This document shows positions 8,561 through 64,000 of a stretch of DNA of 64,000 bases, one piece after another. The translations under genes and the position numbers were made by a program. The number at the start of each line of letters is the position of its first letter. Within the stretch, counting starts at the first letter, position 1. The DNA comes from a virus (lineage: Duplodnaviria > Caudoviricetes), in the IMG/VR virus record IMGVR_UViG_3300037455_000448, positions 32,001 to 96,000 of that record. The stretch is one strand, 5' to 3'. Below the pieces are notes generated by a model. The model saw only the letters and a program-made list of their open reading frames with translations. It was not told where the DNA came from and ran no database searches.

Positions 8561-9555
8561 ATATTTTTAGGATTTACTGTCGGGCTTTGTACCGCTCATA
8601 CCTCGTACCGTTCACTAGAACTTACAGTGTTCTCATCGCCGAGAACTCATACACAGATGGCGTTACTCATCTAGTACTACTCGACTGTCCACCTCACTCC
8701 AGGACTTATTGTTACTACTCTACAGCTATATGCTACTCTTACCCAAGACTTATTCCTTCAACTACTGATTAAATCAATAGTGGCTTAGGTCATTATAACA
8801 TACAGCCCAGCATTAAGATGTTACCATCAAGGTGATTTACTCATTAGGTTATCTGAACCCTTGCCGACCTTTGTTACCCTCGTATCATCAGTATCCTAGT
8901 ACCTACTATGAACAGTTTGACGGTAGCTTGTGTCAATCAGCTACAACCTTATGCTACTAAATTATCTGCATAAGTATCAGAGGTTCGACTTCAACCTCTC
9001 GTATTTGTACCAAGAAAGAATTTTTATTATTCGTACTTCATTCGTACTCCTTCATGTCCTATCTTGAGGCAACCACTTTCTTCTCCTCTATCATCAGACG
9101 GATTACTTACTCTCTACGCAATCCTTGAGACCTCTACTCTTGGTTGGGCGGCGACCCACTTGTCAACTTCTAAGTACCCCTCTCCTATCATAGGGACAAC
9201 TTTTCGTAGTCTCTCCTACTTATGGCTGTCGCTATGTAGAAGGTGCTTCGTGCAACGCTATCTATTATCGCTACTTACTCTACGTCTATGCTCACTCTCC
9301 TTCCTCGCTTTCTATTGACCCTATACAGGAACTTTTAACAAGTCGGTGTATCTTGCCCCACCTATATGGATCGTTGCTTTTTCGTCACATCTCTTGACGC
9401 ATCTTTCACGCTTTATCCTCAGCTTTACACTGATACTCTTTAGCTTATCATGCCTTTATTTATTCTCTGGGATTCGATGAATCACAACGTTTCATCACGT
9501 CTTTCGGCTTAGACGTAACCTGATGTACGGTTTTCCCGATTACCGTAAACGCAAG
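8561..9555 (-). ncRNA. candidate large structured non-coding RNA
   Basis: ~1 kb with no credible gene and more than 12 short inverted repeats; lies in the leftward transcript between two tRNA-like elements. Confidence 0.5.
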
Positions 9556-10671: not shown

Positions 10672-11778
10672 ATGAAAGCTGGGGATGAGTTCAAGAATTA
10701 TAAAGAGCTGTGTAAAGAATTAAAAGAAGAGACAAGGAGTGGTCGTAGTAAAGAGTTGCAGCTAAAGAGGTGGCAGCTTTCATTTAAGTTTCATAAAGAG
10801 GGGAATAAGATAATAATTGATGAAGTAAATGATAAAGAGATAAGAGCGCCTGCTGGGGGGAATAGGAAGCATGTAAATATTTTTTTGCCATATGTAATAT
10901 GTTGCCTATATAGATCAGGGATAACTGATGAGTATATTGGAACGCAGAGACTGTTTAGGAGTGAGCTTCAACTGATACCATCAGAGATGTATGGAGTATT
11001 TAATAAACGAAGTAGGGATCATACAGATTATCTTAGAAAAAACAGTATATCACTGTATGAAAGCCTTACGATGTTTGTGCATTACTTTGAAGTCTATGCG
11101 AAAGAAACTGTTGAAGGCTGCTTTAATGTACTTGCAAAAGACGGGGGTATAAAGTGGAGTCCGGGGCAGATATTCATTGTAGGTATATCACATAAGAAAA
11201 AGGTATGCATTACCGGATATGCTGAAGTACTTGATAAGGTAGAAGAGGCTGTCTGTAAAGAGATGAATAAAGACAGGACGGATTTAAAAGGCCGACAATA
11301 TCTTCATGTGGTAAAGAGGGATAAAAAGCTGTCAAAGTTTTTCTATGCAGAGTGTATAAAGAGGCTTACTGCAGATAAAGAGCTGATGAAAGCGGTTAAG
11401 GCTGAGTATGAGAGACAATATGATATGGAGTTCATTCCTGATATGCTTGTTAATTATTTCAGGGTATATCACATTGAAAGCATAGACAGGAAAAAGCTTC
11501 GTAAATGGAAAGTAGCTCCGAGAGACAGCCTAAGAATGAAAAAAGCGTTTGTCAATTCTGTTGGGCCAGAGATGCAAACGCTCAAGGAAAATGTTTATAG
11601 AGACATATTCCGAAGGATGAGTAAAAAAAATAAATTTGGAATTCCGGACGGTGATTTTGAAAGTTTAAAATATTTAATTTCAAAAAACCGTAAGAAATTA
11701 ACTAATATGAATTATAGCCCAAAAGAATATGAATCGCAAGGAGATGACAGTGTTTCGGACATACCTGCAGAGAATTAG
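10672..11778 (+). CDS. basic hypothetical phage protein (putative DNA-binding)
   Basis: 368 aa; N-terminal FKNYKELCKEL.E....G.SK.LQLK.W...F.FHKEGNK motif. Confidence 0.7.
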   Translation: MKAGDEFKNYKELCKELKEETRSGRSKELQLKRWQLSFKFHKEGNKIIIDEVNDKEIRAPAGGNRKHVNIFLPYVICCLYRSGITDEYIGTQRLFRSELQLIPSEMYGVFNKRSRDHTDYLRKNSISLYESLTMFVHYFEVYAKETVEGCFNVLAKDGGIKWSPGQIFIVGISHKKKVCITGYAEVLDKVEEAVCKEMNKDRTDLKGRQYLHVVKRDKKLSKFFYAECIKRLTADKELMKAVKAEYERQYDMEFIPDMLVNYFRVYHIESIDRKKLRKWKVAPRDSLRMKKAFVNSVGPEMQTLKENVYRDIFRRMSKKNKFGIPDGDFESLKYLISKNRKKLTNMNYSPKEYESQGDDSVSDIPAEN

Positions 11779-52073: not shown

Positions 52074-52892
52074 ATGGTAATCACTTGCGATGATTTGATT
52101 TTCAATGAATTTCAGATGTCCAATTATCCGTTAGTCTCAGGAAATGGTTCTGATGGTGTTATAGATACAACTGATGATATGTCTCTAGCTCCCACTGCTA
52201 CTACTGTATTTGTAGGAGACAAGATGTCTAGTCAGTATGTTAGCCATAAGTATGAGGCAGCAAATGAATTTACTGTAAGATTTGCAAAGGCTAACTGCCA
52301 GATCAATGATACAGATACATTTACTGAAAACGAGTTAAGAACCTACAACAGATTGCTCACAGGCAAGAAAGGATATTCATGGTTGAAAATAGTCAATAAG
52401 TCAGCTATGGAGACAGATTACTATTACAGAGCAATTGTTTCAAAGATTGAATATGAACGCCTTGGATATGACATAGTTGGATATGATGTAACATTCTTAT
52501 GCGATGGTGGAATGGCATATTCAGAGGAGCAGACTATAACTGTTGCTGCAAAGGCTGATATCCCATTTTATATCTTCTCAAACTCAGATGACCTTTATGG
52601 ATATATGCTTCCTACTGTCAAGATAAAAACAAGTACAGCCGGAACCCTCACGTTAACAAATAGTACAGACTCTTGGAGCTCTACTATAGATAACATGAAC
52701 GCAAACGAGACTGTAACTTTTGATTGCAAGAATGAGTTATTAACATCATCTCGTACACGTACATATATCTTAAATGACTTTAATCTTCATTGGCCAAGAA
52801 TACTTCCGGGTAAAAATGAGTATGTATGTAACATGAATGCTACCATTACGTTCACCTTTAGGGCGAACAGAAAGGTAGGATTTGTTACATGA
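52074..52892 (+). CDS. distal tail protein (Dit)
   Basis: Follows the tape measure gene; FN..WPRI.PG.N. Confidence 0.75.
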   Translation: MVITCDDLIFNEFQMSNYPLVSGNGSDGVIDTTDDMSLAPTATTVFVGDKMSSQYVSHKYEAANEFTVRFAKANCQINDTDTFTENELRTYNRLLTGKKGYSWLKIVNKSAMETDYYYRAIVSKIEYERLGYDIVGYDVTFLCDGGMAYSEEQTITVAAKADIPFYIFSNSDDLYGYMLPTVKIKTSTAGTLTLTNSTDSWSSTIDNMNANETVTFDCKNELLTSSRTRTYILNDFNLHWPRILPGKNEYVCNMNATITFTFRANRKVGFVT

Positions 52893-55800
52893 TCATAAAC
52901 AGAAATACCTTGGGCCATATGGAAGACCGTCAGTTTATTTTATGTAAAGCGTCAGAAGAAAGGGTCGGTGTCCTTCAGTGTACCAATAAGAAATGGAGTC
53001 ATAAATACAATGACTTGGATACCCTGTCATTTGATATCTCTTATATCACTGATGGAACACGTACACCTTTTTATGAGGATATTGATATCTTTAAATATAT
53101 CCTTGTTCCTTCTGTAGGATTATTCGTTATAAAGGATATTACGACGAATAACGAGGCTACTGATAACGAATATAAATCAGTTGAATGTCAGGACTATTCT
53201 TCGCAGATTAGTCAGCGATATCTTGAAGACTTCGTGATAAATATGGGAACTACTGAATCTATTGATTCTGTAAGTTTCTATAATCCTGGCAATCAGCCAT
53301 ATAGCTTGATGCATCTGGTTTTAGAGAAATTGCCTGAATGGAGTGTTGGACATTGTGATGCGGCGCTTTGGACTAAGCGAAGGAGCTTTGAAGTAACTCG
53401 TCAGGATATCTATAGCTTTCTGATGAAAGATGTTGCTGAAGCTTTTGAATGTGTCTTTGTCTTTAACACCATCTCTAAGCAGATAAATATTTACGAAGTT
53501 GAGAATGTTGGAATAGATACCAATATCCACCTTTCATATAACAATCTGCTTGAAAGAGCTGAGCTGTCTCTGTCATTGGACGAGATTAAAACATGCGTGA
53601 CTATAAAGGGTGATGATGATCTGACTGTCAGAGAAGTCAATATGGGTTATGATACCCTGTACAATATTGACTACTTTGCGGATCTTGACCATATGTCCGC
53701 TTCTCTTTTGGATGCATATACTACATGGAAAAACTTAGTTAATACTACGGTAGACCTTGATCTTTTTACATATAAGACTGGTGTTATCACAAGAGCTGAA
53801 CTTAGTGGAAAGTCATATAAAGATGCATATACATTGCTGCTTGCAAAGTACCAGAATTACTATACTCAGATAAGTAAGTGGAACTCAACACTTATACCTT
53901 ATGGGGTTAATACACGTAAGCCTGGTTATGGAACTATCTCCTATACCGAAGATGGTTCTGACGCTGTAACTTTTAGCAGACAGACAAGTACAGTCCTTGT
54001 TACTTCTCTCCCATCTTCGGGTGATAGCAATACTCTTTATCTGATTAAGGATACAAATAACATGTATCGTTGGAATGGATCCTGGGTGGATGTTAATAAG
54101 TGGTACAATTGCTGTCTTGCTACATTGAAAGAAAAGCTTGCATCCTTTGAAAATACTCAGGCAGTTGCAATGAAAGCAGGATATGGTGATTCTGAAAATA
54201 CAGATACCACGATCCATGCAAGGTATATTGATACTTATCTTCCATCGCTTTATTCAGTTAACGCAATAACGAAACAGATTGATACAGTAAAGAATACTAT
54301 CTCTGGTCTCGAATCTGATCAGGCCATAATCCAGACGGATAAAACGGTAATTGTTAATAAGACAGCTATGAAGAATAACTTCACTGCTGCACAATTGAAA
54401 GAGTTGTCCACATTTATTCGCGAGGAGGAACTGTCTACGGACAACTATGTTGTAACAGACGTGATGACAGAAGATGAAAGATTTGAGATGCTTTATGCGC
54501 TTTTGGAATATGGCCAAAAAGAACTTGCAAAAGTATCAACACCGCAACTTCAGTTTAGTGTGGATATGGTCAATCTTTTTGCTATTTCAGAGTTTGATAT
54601 TTATTCTGGTGATTTTGATCTTGGGAATTATGTTTGGGTTACTATCCGGGATGATTACTCTATAAAAGCTAAGATATTGGAGATATCAATAGACTTTACT
54701 GATCCGACTCAGTTCAGTGTGACTTTTGGTAATGTAGCTCGGAAAGCTCGTAATATATTTACAGATGTGACAGATGCATTAAATGCTGCTACTTCTGCTG
54801 CTACCTCTGTATCATTCGGTGCTTCTAATTGGAGTGCTGCTGCACAGGAGACTGATTCAATCGGAAAAGCATTAGCTGATGGATTACTCAGTCAGTCCTA
54901 TTATCTGGCAAATGCTGAAGATAATGAGACCCTCATTGATGAGAACGGTGTGTGGATAACGACAACCACTGGTGATCATGGCAGAGAACAGACAGATGAT
55001 TACGATGCTATTTACCTAGGTGGTGGAAGGATTCTGTTTACGGATGATGGATGGCGCTCAGTATCGATGAGTGTTGGACGTGCAGAAGTACAGATGCCCT
55101 CTATAAATTCCAGTGGTGAGCTAATCTTCACAAAAGAATCTCTTTTCGGAACCTTCGCAGATTTCGTTATAGCAGGATATGTAGCAGGCTCCACTATTGT
55201 TGGTGGAGATATCTACTCTTCTAACTATAAGACATCATCGAATAAGAACAGTGGTAACCGTGGTACTCATATGAACCTGAACGACGGTACATTTGAGTTT
55301 AACAACAATGGTAAGAAAAGACTTACTCTCAACTCTTCAGGAGTCCTTGAAGTCAATGGTGTTATTCAGGCTTCATCAGGCCATATCGGTTCAGATGACA
55401 ATGGTGATGGTGGATTTGTTATAGAAAATAAAAAGCTCTATAATGGCAAATCATCTTTCAATGGTACTACTAATGGTATCTATCTGAATTCAGACGAGGG
55501 AATATCTCTTGGTGCTTACAATTCATCTACCGGAAAGAATCCATTCAGCGTAAATAATAGTGGTTATCTTGTGTCAGCATCCGGAAGTATCGGTGGCTGG
55601 AGTATATCTAATAGTACTCTCTCATCAGGCAATATAACCATTGATGCCGGGAATAACAAGTTAAACTTTAACAATAAGTTTATTGTTTATAACGATGGTT
55701 CATTCCAGGCCGCTAACAATAAGTTCAGTGTAAATACCGCTGGTGAGATTACGTCTACAGGCGGAACGATTGGTGGGTGGACAATTGGTGCATCATCACT

Positions 55801-56455
55801 GAGTGCCAATAATATAACCATCAATAGTTCTGGATCCATTACTCAAGAGACTGGGGGCACCAGTAATTGGAGTATTACAAGTACTGGCTATGCTTACTTT
55901 AAAAATGTGTTTATCACTGGGGTTAACAGTGGTTCTACATTTGGAAATATGGGTTATAGCGGTGATACTTATAACTGGGGAACCTTTGGTGGTGGATCAT
56001 TGTATGGAAGTACTACTTCCAACCCATTCAGTGGACAGTGTGTAACACATATCCAAACTCTTGCTGTTGGAGAGATTACCGCTGAAAGAGTTAGTGCCAG
56101 GGCGATAGAGGCAGGATTTATCAAAGCAGATACTATTGCAGCCACATATGCAACGCTTAATGAATTGCATGCAGATTATATTACTGCTAATTCTATTTCA
56201 GCTACATATGCAACAATTACATCTTTAGAGGTTGTAGATGCCAAATTCCAAAATATAAATGCTGATAATATTACTGCTGGAACGGTAAGTACAAGTAGAT
56301 TAAATATCGATGGAATTGTGCAAGGAATGCAGGGAAAAGATATTGATATAAATGGTCTTGAAGTACATGGATATCTAACAGTTGGTAACTATTTGGCTAC
56401 ATGGCATGTAATTACAATTGATGGATTTGATATTAAATATCTAGGAAGGGATTAA
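52889..56455 (+). CDS. baseplate hub / tail spike (Tal-like)
   Basis: Follows Dit; prophage-tail-like N-terminus, GSIGGW.I / GTIGGW.I beta-repeats. Confidence 0.75.
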   Translation: MIINRNTLGHMEDRQFILCKASEERVGVLQCTNKKWSHKYNDLDTLSFDISYITDGTRTPFYEDIDIFKYILVPSVGLFVIKDITTNNEATDNEYKSVECQDYSSQISQRYLEDFVINMGTTESIDSVSFYNPGNQPYSLMHLVLEKLPEWSVGHCDAALWTKRRSFEVTRQDIYSFLMKDVAEAFECVFVFNTISKQINIYEVENVGIDTNIHLSYNNLLERAELSLSLDEIKTCVTIKGDDDLTVREVNMGYDTLYNIDYFADLDHMSASLLDAYTTWKNLVNTTVDLDLFTYKTGVITRAELSGKSYKDAYTLLLAKYQNYYTQISKWNSTLIPYGVNTRKPGYGTISYTEDGSDAVTFSRQTSTVLVTSLPSSGDSNTLYLIKDTNNMYRWNGSWVDVNKWYNCCLATLKEKLASFENTQAVAMKAGYGDSENTDTTIHARYIDTYLPSLYSVNAITKQIDTVKNTISGLESDQAIIQTDKTVIVNKTAMKNNFTAAQLKELSTFIREEELSTDNYVVTDVMTEDERFEMLYALLEYGQKELAKVSTPQLQFSVDMVNLFAISEFDIYSGDFDLGNYVWVTIRDDYSIKAKILEISIDFTDPTQFSVTFGNVARKARNIFTDVTDALNAATSAATSVSFGASNWSAAAQETDSIGKALADGLLSQSYYLANAEDNETLIDENGVWITTTTGDHGREQTDDYDAIYLGGGRILFTDDGWRSVSMSVGRAEVQMPSINSSGELIFTKESLFGTFADFVIAGYVAGSTIVGGDIYSSNYKTSSNKNSGNRGTHMNLNDGTFEFNNNGKKRLTLNSSGVLEVNGVIQASSGHIGSDDNGDGGFVIENKKLYNGKSSFNGTTNGIYLNSDEGISLGAYNSSTGKNPFSVNNSGYLVSASGSIGGWSISNSTLSSGNITIDAGNNKLNFNNKFIVYNDGSFQAANNKFSVNTAGEITSTGGTIGGWTIGASSLSANNITINSSGSITQETGGTSNWSITSTGYAYFKNVFITGVNSGSTFGNMGYSGDTYNWGTFGGGSLYGSTTSNPFSGQCVTHIQTLAVGEITAERVSARAIEAGFIKADTIAATYATLNELHADYITANSISATYATITSLEVVDAKFQNINADNITAGTVSTSRLNIDGIVQGMQGKDIDINGLEVHGYLTVGNYLATWHVITIDGFDIKYLGRD

Positions 56456-58519: not shown

Positions 58520-59521
58520 ATGAGTGTAAATATATATGATTCATCTAATGATACTCTGGTCAAAGTTCCAGGCACAGAAACATCTGCGTTTACTGGAGCA
58601 ACGAGTAGCGCGGCTGGTACAAAAGGATTGGTTCCTGCTCCTGCTGTAGGCGATGAGGCCAAAGTACTTGGTGGTGATGGTACATGGTTAGATGTAGACA
58701 CTACCCCAACTGAAGACGGAACCAATCCAGTAAGTAGCGGAGCTGCATATGCGTTAAAGACGGCTTTATCGAACCAAAAAGCTGACAAAGCTGATGTTAT
58801 GAATGGCAATGCTGGTGCACATAATGCTATATATCGTGGTAAAAGTCTTGGTACGTCAGTAACTGCTGCACAATATACAGCAATCAGTGCTGGCACATTC
58901 GATGATATGTTCATCGGTGATTACTGGGTAATCAATAGCATCACATGGAGAATTGCAGCTTTTGATTACTGGTATAACAACGGAGATACAGCTTGCACGA
59001 CTCACCATGTCTTGCTTGTTCCTGACACAAACCTTGTAAACGCTAAAATGAATGATACCAATATCACTACTGGAGGTTATGTTGGTTCTGATTTCTACAC
59101 TGGAAACAATGGAAATACAGGATATGCTACAGCAAAGAACACCATCAACACAGCCTTCGGTTCAAGCCACATTCTGAACCACAGAGAATATCTTATCAAT
59201 GCAGTTGCCGATGGGCATCCATCAGGCTGCGCATGGTATGACTCTACAGTAGAGCTGATGAATGAGAACATGGTTTACGGTAGCAAGTTCTTTGAACCTA
59301 TGGCAAATGGTTCAGCAGTTTATGCAAATTACAACATAAACAAGTCTCAGCTGCCTTTGTTCCAGCATAGACATGACTTGATCTGCAATAGAGCCAGCTG
59401 GTGGCTGCGCAGCGTTGTTTCGTCGGCGTATTTCGCCTTTGTCGCCAGCGACGGCGTTGCGGGCGCCTACGGCGCTTCGCTCTCTGTTGGCGTTCGCCCC
59501 GCTTTTGCAATCAAAGCGTAA
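58520..59521 (+). CDS. DGR target protein (tail fibre tip/receptor-binding, CLec-like C-terminus)
   Basis: IGDYW, WRIAAFD, WWLRS...GVRPAF C-terminus overlapping the variable repeat. Confidence 0.85.
   Translation: MSVNIYDSSNDTLVKVPGTETSAFTGATSSAAGTKGLVPAPAVGDEAKVLGGDGTWLDVDTTPTEDGTNPVSSGAAYALKTALSNQKADKADVMNGNAGAHNAIYRGKSLGTSVTAAQYTAISAGTFDDMFIGDYWVINSITWRIAAFDYWYNNGDTACTTHHVLLVPDTNLVNAKMNDTNITTGGYVGSDFYTGNNGNTGYATAKNTINTAFGSSHILNHREYLINAVADGHPSGCAWYDSTVELMNENMVYGSKFFEPMANGSAVYANYNINKSQLPLFQHRHDLICNRASWWLRSVVSSAYFAFVASDGVAGAYGASLSVGVRPAFAIKA
58752..58783 (+). repeat. recombination-site-like repeat inside the DGR target gene
   Basis: CGTTAAAGACGGCTTTATCGAACCAAAAAGCT; 24/32 ungapped identity to 62447-62478. 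Confidence 0.55.
59393..59509 (+). repeat. DGR variable repeat (VR)
   Basis: 117 nt, 95/117 identical to 60231-60347; 3' end of the target gene; GC hairpin at ~59535-59555. Confidence 0.9.
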
Positions 59522-59633
59522 GCGTATCTTTAATCCCCCACCCCCTGTGGGTGAGGCTTAGCCTAAAGCAAGCCAACGAAGTAAATTGTTAAAAAACTGA
59601 ATAAAGCAAGAATGTAACACAGGAAGGAATAAC

Positions 59634-60206
59634 ATGAGTACAACCCCAAAAAGCCAGCGAAGTCCTACGCCCTTCGAAGCCGAGCATCATTTTTTCAGAT
59701 TGAGAGATGAAGTAACTGCTCTTATGCTATTAGATTTCGGATTCTCAGAAGAAAAATACAGGAAGAGAATAGAACATTATCGGCAGGTCCACAGGAATGC
59801 CGATAATGTAGATGAAATCGTACAGAGATACGAGAAAAAGTGTCAATCATTCAAGGAATGGTTCGTAGAGCGAGAAAGAGATGCGATATCAGATATCCTA
59901 AGGGAGATAAGCATAGAGTTCACAACAGCAAATTCCATATTCCCATCAGAAACAGCAGCAAAGATAATGGAATATTGCCAGCGCAGAAAGCATCTCAATG
60001 AAGCTATATCAAAATGCTTTGCGCTTAAGAAGGAGATACAGTATGTTATCAGGACTCTTCCGGTAGATATCAATAAGTACAAGAGATTCGATAAATCAAT
60101 AAATGAGCAGATAGCATTATTCAAAGGCGTTCGCAGAGCGGATAACAGATTTCTCAAAGCCAAGGGGAATAAAGAAAAGAAAGGAAAGGCAGAAGATGCT
60201 AAGTAA
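59634..60206 (+). CDS. avd: DGR accessory variability determinant (Avd-like)
   Basis: Basic helical protein between VR and TR; ANSIFP..E...R....AI..C..L..E.Q. Confidence 0.75.
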   Translation: MSTTPKSQRSPTPFEAEHHFFRLRDEVTALMLLDFGFSEEKYRKRIEHYRQVHRNADNVDEIVQRYEKKCQSFKEWFVERERDAISDILREISIEFTTANSIFPSETAAKIMEYCQRRKHLNEAISKCFALKKEIQYVIRTLPVDINKYKRFDKSINEQIALFKGVRRADNRFLKAKGNKEKKGKAEDAK

Positions 60207-60230
60207 TTTCATAGGGCAATCTTTGAATGG

Positions 60231-60347
60231 GCCTACTGGTGGCTGCGCAGCGTTGTTTCGTCGGCGCCTTGGGTCGGTGTCTGCTCCTGCGGCTTTGCGA
60301 GCCACTACGGCGCTTCGTACTCTGTTGGCGTTCGCCCCGATTTTGCA
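60231..60347 (+). repeat. DGR template repeat position (adenine-depleted)
   Basis: Between avd and RT; flanks pair (60213-60224 with 60395-60406); only 8 A and no AAY codons. Confidence 0.8.
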
Positions 60348-60506
60348 GATGCATAGACAAGACCTCAAGCTAGGCATTGCATGTATGCAAAAGGAAAGAT
60401 TGTCCTTGCTGAATAAGCTTAAAGATAGCGGTGAAACACCGGAGCCAATGTGTTGGTTTGCCTTACGCAAACGGATAAGTCTGAATGCTAACTGGGGCTT
60501 AACTCT

Positions 60507-61685
60507 ATGAGAAACACAGACCTCCCTGAGGACGGGATAGCAGATATGAATTTGCTTTATGATGCATTCCAGGCATCAATGAAGGGGAGCTCATGGAAAG
60601 GAGAGCCGCAAGGTTTCGAAGCAGATTTCCTAAGCGAGCTGACAAAGTTGAGTGACGAGCTGCTTGACAAGACCTATAGGACAAGTAAAGGTTCAGAATT
60701 TGTCCTCAAAGAGCGAGGAAAGGAAAGATATATCCATGGCAACAGAATGAGAGACAGAGTGGCAAGGCATTGCATATGCGATAATGTTCTGACACCCACG
60801 CTGTCAAAGTATCTGATTTACAATAACGGAGCCAGTCAGAAAGGGAAAGGTATAGATTTTTCAAGAAAGATATTTGAGAGAGACTTGCATAATTACTGGC
60901 TTGAGCACAGAAGTAATGAAGGATATATAGCATTCATGGATTTGTCCAAGTTCTTTGACAATATCGTGCATGAAGAAGCACTGAGAAGAATCAAGCCAAA
61001 GATTGATGAACAGTCTCAATGGCTCATAGAAGTAATCTTTGATAATTTCAAGGTGGATGTATCGTATATGTCGGATGAAGAATATCAGAGCTGCATGAAG
61101 AAAAAATTCAACTCCATAGAATATCACAAGAATGTTCCTGAAGAATTGAAGACAGGAAAGAAATTCATGAGAAAGTCAGTTGATATAGGCGACCAAGTAT
61201 CGCAGGATGTAGGCACATTCTTTCCGACAGACGTAGATAATTATGCAACCATAGTAAGAGGATGCAGAAGATACGGCAGATATATGGATGATATTTACAT
61301 AATCCATGAGGATAGAGAATTTCTAAAATCTGTCATAGCCGGAATTGAGAAGATTGCGGACGAGATGGGAATGTTCGTCAACAAGAAGAAAACAAGGTTA
61401 GTAAAGCTGTCAACAACATATACATATCTGCAATTCAAGTACTCATTAAGCAATACCGGAAAAGTAATCAAAAGAATCAATCCGAAATCAGTTACAAGAG
61501 AAAGAAGAAAACTTAAGAAGTACAAGCATTTGCTTGATAGGGGAACGCTCAGTTATTCAGAAATAGAACAGTGTTACAAGTCATGGATATGTGACTATGC
61601 AAAGTACATGTCCAAGGTACAACGAGAGCATATGCAAGCTCTATATGAAGAACTATTTGGAAGGAGAATAAGATGGAAACAGTAA
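60507..61685 (+). CDS. DGR reverse transcriptase
   Basis: RDRVARH, D.SKFFDNI.H, IGDQVSQ, YGRYMDD; intact 392-aa ORF. Confidence 0.92.
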   Translation: MRNTDLPEDGIADMNLLYDAFQASMKGSSWKGEPQGFEADFLSELTKLSDELLDKTYRTSKGSEFVLKERGKERYIHGNRMRDRVARHCICDNVLTPTLSKYLIYNNGASQKGKGIDFSRKIFERDLHNYWLEHRSNEGYIAFMDLSKFFDNIVHEEALRRIKPKIDEQSQWLIEVIFDNFKVDVSYMSDEEYQSCMKKKFNSIEYHKNVPEELKTGKKFMRKSVDIGDQVSQDVGTFFPTDVDNYATIVRGCRRYGRYMDDIYIIHEDREFLKSVIAGIEKIADEMGMFVNKKKTRLVKLSTTYTYLQFKYSLSNTGKVIKRINPKSVTRERRKLKKYKHLLDRGTLSYSEIEQCYKSWICDYAKYMSKVQREHMQALYEELFGRRIRWKQ

Positions 61686-61981
61686 CCATTATTTTCAAAG
61701 ATGCCACATCCATAACAGCAAAGCTGAACGGAAATAGCTTTATTACAGACGAAGAGCCAAGATTTCCTGATGATATGACAAAAGTCATTATCAGAAAAGA
61801 GGATGGATCCATAGAAACAATCAGGAACGCAGAAGTGCAGGAGTGTGCTTCAACAGATGGCAAGTACTGGTTTACATTTGTTGTTGCCACAGAAATGGAT
61901 AAGCTGCAGGCCCAGGTGCTCTTCACAGCACTTGAAACAGACACACTTATCATAGAAGAAGATGAGGAAGAGGAGGAGTAA
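61673..61981 (+). CDS. small fibre-associated protein
   Basis: LNGNSFI; LQAQVLFTALETDT; precedes an XkdX-like gene. Confidence 0.6.
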   Translation: METVTIIFKDATSITAKLNGNSFITDEEPRFPDDMTKVIIRKEDGSIETIRNAEVQECASTDGKYWFTFVVATEMDKLQAQVLFTALETDTLIIEEDEEEEE

Positions 61982-61984
61982 TCA

Positions 61985-62125
61985 ATGAGCAGGCTGTATA
62001 AGACAATCAAGAAGTACTATCACATGGGGCTATATGATGATGCAAAAGTTGCTGCATTCGTCGCAAAAGGACAGCTCACACCTGAGGAGTACGAAGAAAT
62101 CACAGGTAAGCCTTATGAAGAATGA
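61985..62125 (+). CDS. XkdX-like protein
   Basis: Hand translation MSRLYKTIKKYYHMGLYDDAKVAAFVAKGQLTPEEYEEITGKPYEE. Confidence 0.8.
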   Translation: MSRLYKTIKKYYHMGLYDDAKVAAFVAKGQLTPEEYEEITGKPYEE

Positions 62126-62285
62126 TATAGCTGAGCTGATAGATAAGCAGAATGAAATCATCAAAGCTCAGTCAGATATAATTAGCAAATTATTTCTCAA
62201 ATTGCTTGAATATACAACTGTTGCAGAGTTGGATAACTGTGAGATTGTCAGTGATATTAAAGAAATTGCAAAACTAAGAAGTTAG
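62115..62285 (+). CDS. small coiled-coil protein
   Basis: MKNDIAELIDKQNEIIKAQSDII.. Confidence 0.6.
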   Translation: MKNDIAELIDKQNEIIKAQSDIISKLFLKLLEYTTVAELDNCEIVSDIKEIAKLRS

Positions 62286-62650
62286 TTCGCTAAATCAGCC
62301 TTGGCGGAGCAAAACTTGATGGTACAGTAAGAGCAACAATGCTTAGAGGCATCGGAGCCAGCGGCGAACCGCTTGAGTATGCTTATTGGGTAAGACCTAT
62401 CGAGTATGTAGAGCCTAAACCTGAGGAATAATAGAATAATTTAGTTCGTAAAAGGAACATTTATCGAAGTAAAAAGCTTACGAGTCACGGATAACTAATC
62501 TGTGATAGGGGGTGGCTTTTCGGAGTCACCCTATTTATTAAAAGAAACATTTTACGGAAGTAAACTAACTCAAAAAACAACTTAAATCGATTTGAGTTAT
62601 ATTTGAGTTATTCGCTTTAATTGAATTGAAAATGAAGTGAATTTGAGTTA
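62282..62650 (+). repeat. cluster of recombination-site-like repeats
   Basis: TTAGTTCG at 62282 and 62441; TAAAAG(G/A)AACATTT..GAAGTAAA at 62449 and 62539; ATTTGAGTTA at 62590, 62601, 62641 plus an inverted copy at 62566. Confidence 0.6.
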
Positions 62651-62953
62651 AAACGAATAGGCCCCTGGAGATCTTCGGATTGCCCATGAAAGCTCACTGT
62701 TTCTTTGGAGACGTATGAGAAAGGCAAAACATGTTTATGTGAAGTAAGAGAGGGAGTTTTGCTAGTTTTTACGTAACCTCAATCTGTAAACTAGCATTAA
62801 AGAAAAAAATTTTTTAGAGAGTCAAAATAAAAAAGTCGCGCAAACCCAGATGGATACTGACGCTCTTATCCCATTATATAATACCGTATTAGTTAACACG
62901 GAAAAGTATTTATGATATTCTTTATTCCACTAAATAAAAGGAGGAATAAAAAT

Positions 62954-63220
62954 ATGAATTATCCAAAACGTGAATTAGTCAAGACAAAACCTGAGAACAT
63001 GGTCAATGTAGACACTCAATTTCTCAGAACAGTATGCAGGGAAAAAGGGTTTAATATGTCAGAAACATCATTGATAATGGGATATTGTGCAGACTATCTT
63101 TCCAATGCGATTACGGATGGACGTATAAATAAAGATCATCTGAAGATGTTATCTGATGTTCTAGGATTTCCGTACAAAAAAGCATTGGCCAAGAAAACAA
63201 AACGTAAAAAAGCTGCATGA
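62954..63220 (+). CDS. XRE-like HTH protein
   Basis: REKGFNMSETSLIMGYCADYLSNAI..G; AGGAGG RBS. Confidence 0.6.
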   Translation: MNYPKRELVKTKPENMVNVDTQFLRTVCREKGFNMSETSLIMGYCADYLSNAITDGRINKDHLKMLSDVLGFPYKKALAKKTKRKKAA

Positions 63221-63321
63221 TTAAACACATCCCCCATGTGTAAGATAATGACCCCTTACTTATGTTTGTGGGTTATCAAGGCTTACATCTGCGCCAGGTT
63301 AAACAGATGTGGTATAAATAA

Positions 63322-63359
63322 GGCTTCCTGATTTGACATTCAGGGAGCCTTTTATTTTT
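63322..63359 (+). terminator. intrinsic terminator
   Basis: GGCTTCCTGA...TCAGGGAGCC followed by TTTTTATTTTT. Confidence 0.65.
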
Positions 63360-63389
63360 CAAAAAGAGAATATAGTTTCTAATTTTTAA

Positions 63390-63418
63390 TTTACAACAGT
63401 AATAATTAGTGGTAAAAT
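63390..63418 (+). promoter_or_regulatory. sigmaA-type promoter for the recombinase
   Basis: TTTACA-17-TAAAAT with TG extension. Confidence 0.5.
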
Positions 63419-63544
63419 ATCACATATTTTAACAAAGAAAAAGAGCGAGGATCCTGACTACCAATCATACTATCCTGCTCTCTTATGGCTTGATGATATT
63501 ATACCACAAGCCTTCCTTTGTATACAACCAAGGAGGGAATTATT

Positions 63545-64000
63545 TTGGAAAAACTTGTTAACAACATTGTGTATAAACTAAGCACAAAGTTATCTGCTGA
63601 CGAAGTCAATATTGTAAGAAATGTACTTTATCTGACACTAAAAGATTATGATGTAGTAGAGAAAACTACAGACTTATCTGTAATTGAAAACGAACTTCCC
63701 AAAGAAGCCAAGATATATCTTGCATCCAGATTGGTTGATGGCCTAAGCGAGAACACTATCAAGCAGTATAAGCGCACTCTTGATCTGTTCTTTTCTGTAT
63801 GTGCAAAGACAGTGAATGATGTAACAACAGAGGACTGCAGACTCTTCTTTTTTAAGCTGCAAGAAACCAGCAAAATGAATAATCGTTCTTTAGATTCCCA
63901 AAGAACATATCTAAACTCTTTCTTTCATTGGCTTGTTGATAACGAATATATTCTTAAAAATCCATGTTCGCCAATAAGACCATTTAAGTATGAAAAGAAA
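63545..64000 (+). CDS. tyrosine recombinase/integrase, N-terminal part (truncated by window)
   Basis: GGAGG RBS and TTG start; hand translation ..YLASRLVDGLSENTIKQY..VTTEDCRLF..LNSFFHWLVDNEYILKNP.. (XerD-like core-binding domain). Confidence 0.85.
   Translation, partial: MEKLVNNIVYKLSTKLSADEVNIVRNVLYLTLKDYDVVEKTTDLSVIENELPKEAKIYLASRLVDGLSENTIKQYKRTLDLFFSVCAKTVNDVTTEDCRLFFFKLQETSKMNNRSLDSQRTYLNSFFHWLVDNEYILKNPCSPIRPFKYEKK

Follow-up and report, generated by a model that had tools for sequence, protein, structure and literature searches.

A palindromic site shared by a fibre hinge and a recombinase locus may delimit a tip block carrying a diversity-generating retroelement in a phage genome

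Is the variable tip of a phage tail fibre, together with the diversity-generating retroelement (DGR) that follows it, a block set in place by a neighbouring recombinase? The question is raised by a 64,000-nt window (bases 32001–96000) of a 117,268-base IMG/VR record (IMGVR_UViG_3300037455_000448), in which a tail-fibre gene that is the target of a DGR contains a short imperfect palindrome, site a, that recurs as site b in the spacer ahead of a tyrosine recombinase gene. A preliminary description of this DNA had read the arrangement as an integron-like second tier of host-range variation, in which fibre C-termini, here with the whole machinery of accessory gene (avd), template repeat (TR) and reverse transcriptase (RT), are exchanged as cassettes. 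We tentatively conclude, with considerable reservation, that a and b serve, or once served, as recombinase sites delimiting the tip-plus-DGR block; the site pair is probably an evolutionary joint or a relic switch rather than a running one. Coordinates are those of the window unless a locus label (L plus a number, for compared loci) precedes them; the genes, repeats, sites, gene remnant and operon terminator described lie on the plus strand. Record-wide scans took in all 117 kb.

Two copies of one palindromic site

Sites a (58752–58783) and b (62447–62478) are identical at 24 of 32 positions without gaps, reproducing the match first described, and the mismatches are, as had been stated, concentrated in the spacer of the dyad, where AAAG and TTT enclose five positions, none of them shared. 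The dyad TTCGTNAAA-N6-TTTNNCGAA is fitted by b without mismatch and by a with one, and these are its sole matches at ≤2 mismatches in the record, in which a reversed control pattern has none. A search of the 117 kb for a third copy of the 24 shared positions was negative (runner-up, 17/24); with only two copies of the site, the cassette array envisaged ahead of the recombinase is not there. Both a and b have the right arm TTTATCGAA plus AAAAAGCT, which the elements of other phages are without. Judged by these sequences, a single family of palindromic sites includes both a and b. Two degenerate copies that had been placed near 62287 and 62539 are present: site c (62282–62310), immediately 3′ of a stop codon, is the left half alone (TTAGTTCGCTAAA), and site d (62533–62565), which has a good right arm and overlaps the tail of a terminator, is ~25/31 identical to b with one gap and resembles the right half-site of the related locus L085.

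Comparing the fibre gene (1 kb) with the pre-recombinase spacer (1.26 kb), 24/32 was attained in 1/200 shuffles and the best local alignment (58765–58786/62460–62481) in 0/150, figures that are generous because the region pair was picked after the match had been seen. The best match is direct, and the inverted-orientation comparison of a and b is at background. A codon-sampling test (P = 5 × 10−5 for ≥24 matches given the peptide) was discarded as independent evidence because site a was picked for its match to b.

Site b forms part of an imperfect palindrome of 11-6-11 type (62441–62478) that closes the fibre module 1.1 kb 5′ of the recombinase gene. Members of its family were also found in L009, L164, L165, L178 and L085, and in the first four of these the palindrome, TTAGTTCGT(T/A)AAAG-N5/6-TTT..CGAA, lies immediately 3′ of the last small open reading frame (ORF) of the fibre module. 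The palindromes of these four are 28–29/29 identical between phages whose flanks are unrelated; the arms of the site in the present phage are imperfect (8/11). As RNA, site b is a weak hairpin, the phage elements folding at −5.7 to −9.3 kcal/mol without T-runs. Homologues of the recombinase at 38–41% identity have a perfect palindrome of the same geometry (11–12-nt arms around a TAAAG-N4-CTTTA core) 225–609 nt 5′ of the gene in about a dozen loci, a count that overstates their independence because many of these loci are related to one another. Palindrome density is 0.058 per kb within 2.5 kb of a recombinase homologue versus 0.008 per kb elsewhere in those loci, a seven-fold difference. From its position and geometry, we infer that site b is a core-type site of this recombinase family. 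A palindrome scan of 185,579 species' genomes gave 23 matches, mostly Bacillota hairpin terminators or random, and was uninformative on the phage element.

Between half-site c and site b lies the C-terminal remnant of a small gene (62290–62431), which has no start and is identified by the resemblance of its end to the gene that precedes the palindrome in relatives (L165:12964–13413 type): its last residues are ...YAYWVRPIEYVEPKPEE, where L165 has ...EYWVRTIEPTE and L009 has ...PAEPEPTEE. The remnant between c and b suggests an old recombination scar.

A Xer-like recombinase distinct from the prophage integrase

The tyrosine recombinase does start at 63545, as the preliminary description had it: the start codon is TTG behind AGGAGG, homologues begin MEKF, and the gene passes the end of the window (64000) and ends at 64531, encoding a Xer-like protein of 328 amino acids. 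It consists of a Phage_integrase domain (3.9 × 10−35) and a SAM-like core-binding N-domain, with no arm-binding domain. The catalytic residues are intact, and 23 homologues all share R187, K212, H277, R280, H303 and Y312. The best NCBIfam model is XerA-type (210 bits, cut-off 220); the integron integrase model TIGR02249 gives 76.6 bits against a cut-off of 265. This recombinase is not the prophage integrase, because a second integrase of 393 amino acids, 7 kb beyond it, adjoins host genes (for example, a class-V aminotransferase). A single-protein search of IMG/VR found no close relatives, and an alignment query was needed; the nearest homologues are 59–67% identical (P0070–P0083) and an identical protein is encoded on one 10.4-kb contig. 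The gene contexts compared here are those of other homologues.

The hinge of the fibre gene

The DGR target gene (58520–59521; 333 amino acids) was identified as a tail-fibre gene from its ORF, fibre PHROGs, a DUF6273 match at residues 275–332 and 80 tip relatives. Its product consists of an N-module (residues 1 to ~92), a hinge and a variable tip that may be C-type-lectin-like. Site a, an imperfect palindrome lying in frame in the hinge, codes for residues 78–88 (ALKTALSNQKA) and uses the rare codons GCG, TTA and TCG. Given that the confident C-domain of the predicted model begins at about residue 95–100 and that relatives align from residue 93–98, a falls within the final turns of the N-module, immediately 5′ of the joint. 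The placement of a at the changeover from N-module to tip was thus correct in that the hinge is a real mosaic one, with the precise place just 5′ of the joint.

The linker that the hinge forms is conserved, and a motif homologous to a is present in L084, L009, L085 and L165. In the last three of these, the peptide QTLTN is encoded by 15 identical bases (CAG ACT TTA ACG AAC, including the rare TTA and ACG), and neighbouring codons differ; the L084 hinge retains TCG TTA AAG CAG ACT TTA, the other half of the palindrome. Combined, these hinge halves can be read as the palindrome with the arm of the downstream element. Across 161 compared loci and 2.39 Mb of DNA, the 11-mer GTTCGWWAAAG has ten matches and is not commoner than scrambled controls, and nine of the ten fall in five phages. 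In all four phages in which both regions are covered, the fibre gene has one copy and the downstream element has the other. The L009 pair extends to 16/18 and is attained in 1/150 shuffles, in inverted orientation; the better match in the window is direct. Because the hinge modules of L009, L085 and L165 are mutually homologous, this pairing of hinge and element amounts, with the window, to about two independent cases rather than four. An a-like/b-like pair aligned by eye in L084 was not top-scoring in an objective search and was not counted.

The tip and its retroelement

The 117-nt variable repeat (VR; 59393–59509) lies at the 3′ end of the target gene. Beyond it come a putative accessory gene in the avd position (59634–60206; 190 amino acids), the TR (60231–60347), the RT gene (60507–61685; 392 amino acids; RVT_1 at 7 × 10−14) and, carried along with the tip, three small late genes (61673–62285), namely a 102-amino-acid ORF, XkdX (61985–62125; Phage_XkdX at 9 × 10−17) and a 55-amino-acid ORF (62118–62285). 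The gene at the avd position matched no Pfam or NCBIfam family; a positional homologue is present in 51 of the 80 tip relatives, 49 of which also have an RT homologue in the same position beside it, and ~29 have neither. Homologues of the small late genes come after the RT in 15–23 relatives. With or without the DGR, the tip is joined to many different N-termini in relatives.

TR and VR are identical at 95 of 117 positions. Their 22 mismatches are not confined to adenines (TR bases: 5 A, 7 T, 6 G, 4 C), and the TR has only eight adenines. With TR adenines accounting for only 5/22 mismatches, the two repeats are not the product of recent homing. Since this VR and the retroelement were brought together, homing has probably not taken place, and the divergence of the repeats would fit different histories of tip and retroelement.

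In predicted fold, the tip (58820–59518) is best matched by the Thomasclavelia ramosa IgA peptidase, in its N-terminal domain (9qa6; Z 9.8 over 163 aligned residues at 19% identity). Ordinary C-type lectin domains rank lower: Z is 3–6 against these, against the Bacteroides fimbrial tip 4eps and against TvpA 2y3c. Foldseek with the tip model returned nothing at E ≤ 0.001.

How the block may have been assembled

In the explanation that we tentatively favour, the small Xer-like recombinase would act at b, its presumed core-type site, and a, the copy lying in frame in the hinge, would with b bracket the tip, avd–TR–RT and the three small late genes. Recombination at sites of the a/b type, probably between phages over evolutionary time, would have set the tip-plus-DGR block behind the N-module. 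In its overall plan the locus looks like a fibre-switching or cassette layout without a spare cassette. In favour of this explanation are the rarity of the a/b match for this pair of regions, the enrichment of same-geometry palindromes beside recombinase homologues, the pairing of hinge motif and downstream element, the recombinase of L085 at the equivalent place, the inversion switches of L159 and L160, the intact catalytic residues and the precedent of fibre shufflons with a recombinase beside the receptor-binding gene. If the sites are real substrates, the fibre tip is a swappable cassette that takes a complete DGR along with it, which would explain DGR-bearing tips behind many unrelated fibre shafts and would join in one gene two known routes of change in receptor recognition, hypermutation and recombinase-driven tip exchange. 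If not, the locus reduces to a mosaic fibre of the ordinary kind that has a DGR, plus an accessory recombinase.

A number of observations weigh against the bracketing of the block by recombinase sites. Canonical tyrosine recombination (Cre/lox, lambda Int) requires matching overlap regions, and the central regions of a and b (GACGGC versus GGAACA) are identical at 1/6 positions. Deletion between a and b would give an 85-residue fibre ending ...AYALK..LSK, then a stop, and inversion also meets a stop at once. As the two sites now stand, cycling is unlikely, because the centres differ and both products end the fibre a few codons past the hinge. The 117 kb contain no spare tip, site array or third site; there are no strong inverted repeats between 56.5 and 65.5 kb, and there is no minus-strand tip ORF; and exact searches of viral and metagenome collections for the left flank of a and the right flank of b returned no other copy and no rearranged variant. 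Among 80 tip loci, the dyad is present at the hinge or 3′ of the DGR in none but L009, and a recombinase match lies nearby in one, at a weak 25% identity. Loci of recombinase homologues carry a single palindrome copy each, and three complete phage genomes carry the palindrome once and encode no homologue of the recombinase. Measured against background, the dyad stands alone at a and b but the 24/32 score does not, as 66 direct 32-mer pairs, mostly plainly random, reach ≥24/32 window-wide. Moreover, retention of the hinge palindrome could be due to the peptide or to recent exchange.

Comparison with related phages upheld the preliminary description in part. The tip does stand behind many different N-termini, but homology breaks beside site a rather than at it: tip-block DNA homology to the nearest relatives begins at 58806–58820, 23–37 nt past a, and ends by 62106, ~340 nt before b. 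Similarly, the proposal that fibre C-termini are exchanged with the whole avd–TR–RT machinery holds for the mosaic tip joint but not for the machinery, which is a separate indel unit, nor is there a spare tip. The target genes of L073 and L064 are 96% identical, and the two loci differ by a clean 2.07-kb avd–TR–RT indel (L073:8742–10817 versus L064:8742–8802) that starts just past the VR hairpin; L064, without the unit, retains the VR and the downstream hairpin. The retroelement therefore moves without the tip.

Alternative explanations

A possible alternative, on the doubtful side, is that b is the sole real site, used for genome resolution or circularization in the manner of Cre/loxP or Xer/dif or for integration of a recombinase island, with a as a cryptic look-alike that arises from a palindromically coded hinge peptide, and tips swapped at the conserved hinge through recombination of the ordinary kind, homologous or illegitimate. 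This would accommodate the presence of exactly one palindrome 5′ of the gene in about a dozen homologue loci, the break in tip homology past a and the unmatched centres. It also draws on L085, a syntenic locus (flanking proteins 59–80% identical) that has no DGR, has different receptor-binding genes and encodes, in the same slot, a recombinase of 44% identity. The L085 palindrome is in two parts, a left half (8685–8712) and a right half (11747–11775), each beside AAGAAGAAT, and the halves flank a 3.07-kb insert composed of the recombinase homologue and two ORFs; the split palindrome looks like attL/attR of a small recombinase island, although no empty-site relative of L085 was found. In L113 (8590/10035) and L137 (8809/10587), 40–60-nt imperfect direct repeats 1.4–1.8 kb apart surround recombinase homologues and may mark recombinase-only insertion units. 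A role for b alone leaves unexplained the synonymous-site identity of the hinge codons in three diverged phages, the pairing of hinge motif and downstream element in four phages and the phage-specific right arm common to a and b.

It is unlikely that the resemblance of a and b is chance or driven by the peptide, the palindromes acting at the fibre/lysis junction as a boundary hairpin or an operator and the recombinase being an unrelated accessory gene in a variable region beside an ordinary mosaic fibre with a DGR. The abundance of 24/32 pairs in the window, the palindrome-bearing complete phages without a recombinase and the independence of the avd–TR–RT indel from the tip all favour this explanation, as do the similar palindromes in Bacillota, which are mostly terminator hairpins, and the insulation of the recombinase gene, which has its own promoter-like site (63390–63418) and is separated from the late operon by terminators at 62509–62532 and 63320–63351. 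Set against these are the region-restricted shuffles (1/200 and 0/150), the standing of a as the only other dyad copy in 117 kb, the weak folding of the phage elements without T-runs and the enrichment of the palindrome beside recombinase homologues.

Slightly less probable still is that the hinge and recombinase-side palindromes are handles of cassette exchange, by which Xer-like recombinases, in cis or from co-resident phages, move whole tips between genomes, phages that have both sites but no recombinase being recipients; variation in host range would in that case have two tiers, cassette swapping and DGR hypermutation, the tip here carrying a complete DGR and small late genes. The integron-like tier first proposed is, as a working system, not supported, given the missing cassette array, the TIGR02249 score of 76.6 bits against 265 and centres that differ at 5/6 positions.

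Genes around the locus and relatives of the recombinase

The DGR target lies in a rightward late operon, after a minor tail protein (52889–56455), a BppU-type protein and a fibre protein of 253 amino acids. The fibre/DGR operon ends at an intrinsic terminator (62509–62532; 10-bp stem and T-run, −16.2 kcal/mol, z −3.4). A small basic ORF of 88–102 amino acids (62954–63220) lies 5′ of the recombinase gene, followed by the terminator at 63320–63351, and matched no family in Pfam, PHROGs or NCBIfam. Beyond the recombinase gene are a sigma-70-region-4-like protein of 71 amino acids (window coordinates 64653–64868), seven conserved phage genes, a GH25/CHAP/SH3 lysin and then the second integrase. 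The 71-amino-acid protein is kept in L085 and L165 just 3′ of the palindrome region, and it could be a regulator that binds the palindrome. Rfam gave no match on 58–64 kb, and blastn of 56.4–64 kb against GenBank phages gave none.

The recombinase leader contains a 14-nt inverted repeat (13/14; arms 63409–63422 and 63494–63507; no strand assigned) around a 71-nt segment. A perfect 14-nt counterpart occurs in L084 (8870–8883/8951–8964), and in both the window and L084 the repeat encloses a GC-rich segment of ~70 nt and is placed ~135 nt 5′ of the start codon. It may be a hairpin of the leader or an invertible element of very small size. Around the recombinase gene of the window, no direct repeats of attL/attR type were found above chance, and there are no tRNA genes near the recombinase gene in five loci. 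Recombinase homologues also occur within inversion systems: L159 encodes a more distant homologue in an inversion switch whose four 18-nt sites cut convergent pairs of tail-fibre ORFs, and on the phage contig L160 (8105–10979) a homologue lies inside a four-site inversion system of hsdS (type I restriction–modification).

Comparison with known systems

Integrons comprise IntI, attI and attC cassettes, imperfect palindromes bounding cassettes beside a tyrosine recombinase gene. The locus described here shares with them the general idea of palindrome-bounded cassettes beside such a gene; however, it has no array, the cassette forms an in-frame fusion within a gene instead of following a promoter, and the recombinase scores below the TIGR02249 cut-off. 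In Cre/loxP of phage P1 and in Xer/dif, a simple tyrosine recombinase acts with a single palindromic site near its gene, with arms around a 6–8-bp centre. This is the pattern of the dozen or so homologue loci, from which the present phage differs in having a second copy inside the fibre gene and imperfect arms (8/11).

Canonical phage DGRs, of the Bordetella BPP-1 Mtd/Avd/TR/RT type, have no recombinase sites in the element, and a literature search found no paper linking a DGR to recombinase sites of this kind. The present DGR resembles them in its fibre-type target, where the VR closes a putatively lectin-like domain, and in the gene at the avd position, TR and RT that come after it, and departs from them in that 5/22 TR/VR mismatches are at TR adenines.

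Fibre shufflons provide the nearest framework for a recombinase beside a fibre locus. In BV01-like Phocaeicola phages, a shufflon of three cassettes in 1.7 kb occurs in all six configurations in reads (PMC13596623, preprint), with short directional motifs between cassettes; here there is one 3.7-kb block and no variants were found. In both, the recombinase flanks the tail-fibre gene's distal end. The Rin shufflon of dnaJ2-integrated prophages of Bifidobacterium (Mavrich et al. 2018; PMC6109161) has a XerD-like recombinase beside the receptor-binding gene and separate from the phage integrase, several inverted 11-bp rix sites and several spare C-terminal segments, with inversions seen in virion DNA (PMC6109161). 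Unlike Rin, the present locus has two sites, of which the best match is direct, mismatched centres, no spare tip, no rearrangement observed and a DGR within the block. What it shares with Rin is a Xer-like recombinase that is distinct from the integrase, without an arm-binding domain and placed by the fibre locus, and a short site at the joint between constant and variable parts of the fibre gene, repeated here on the recombinase side.

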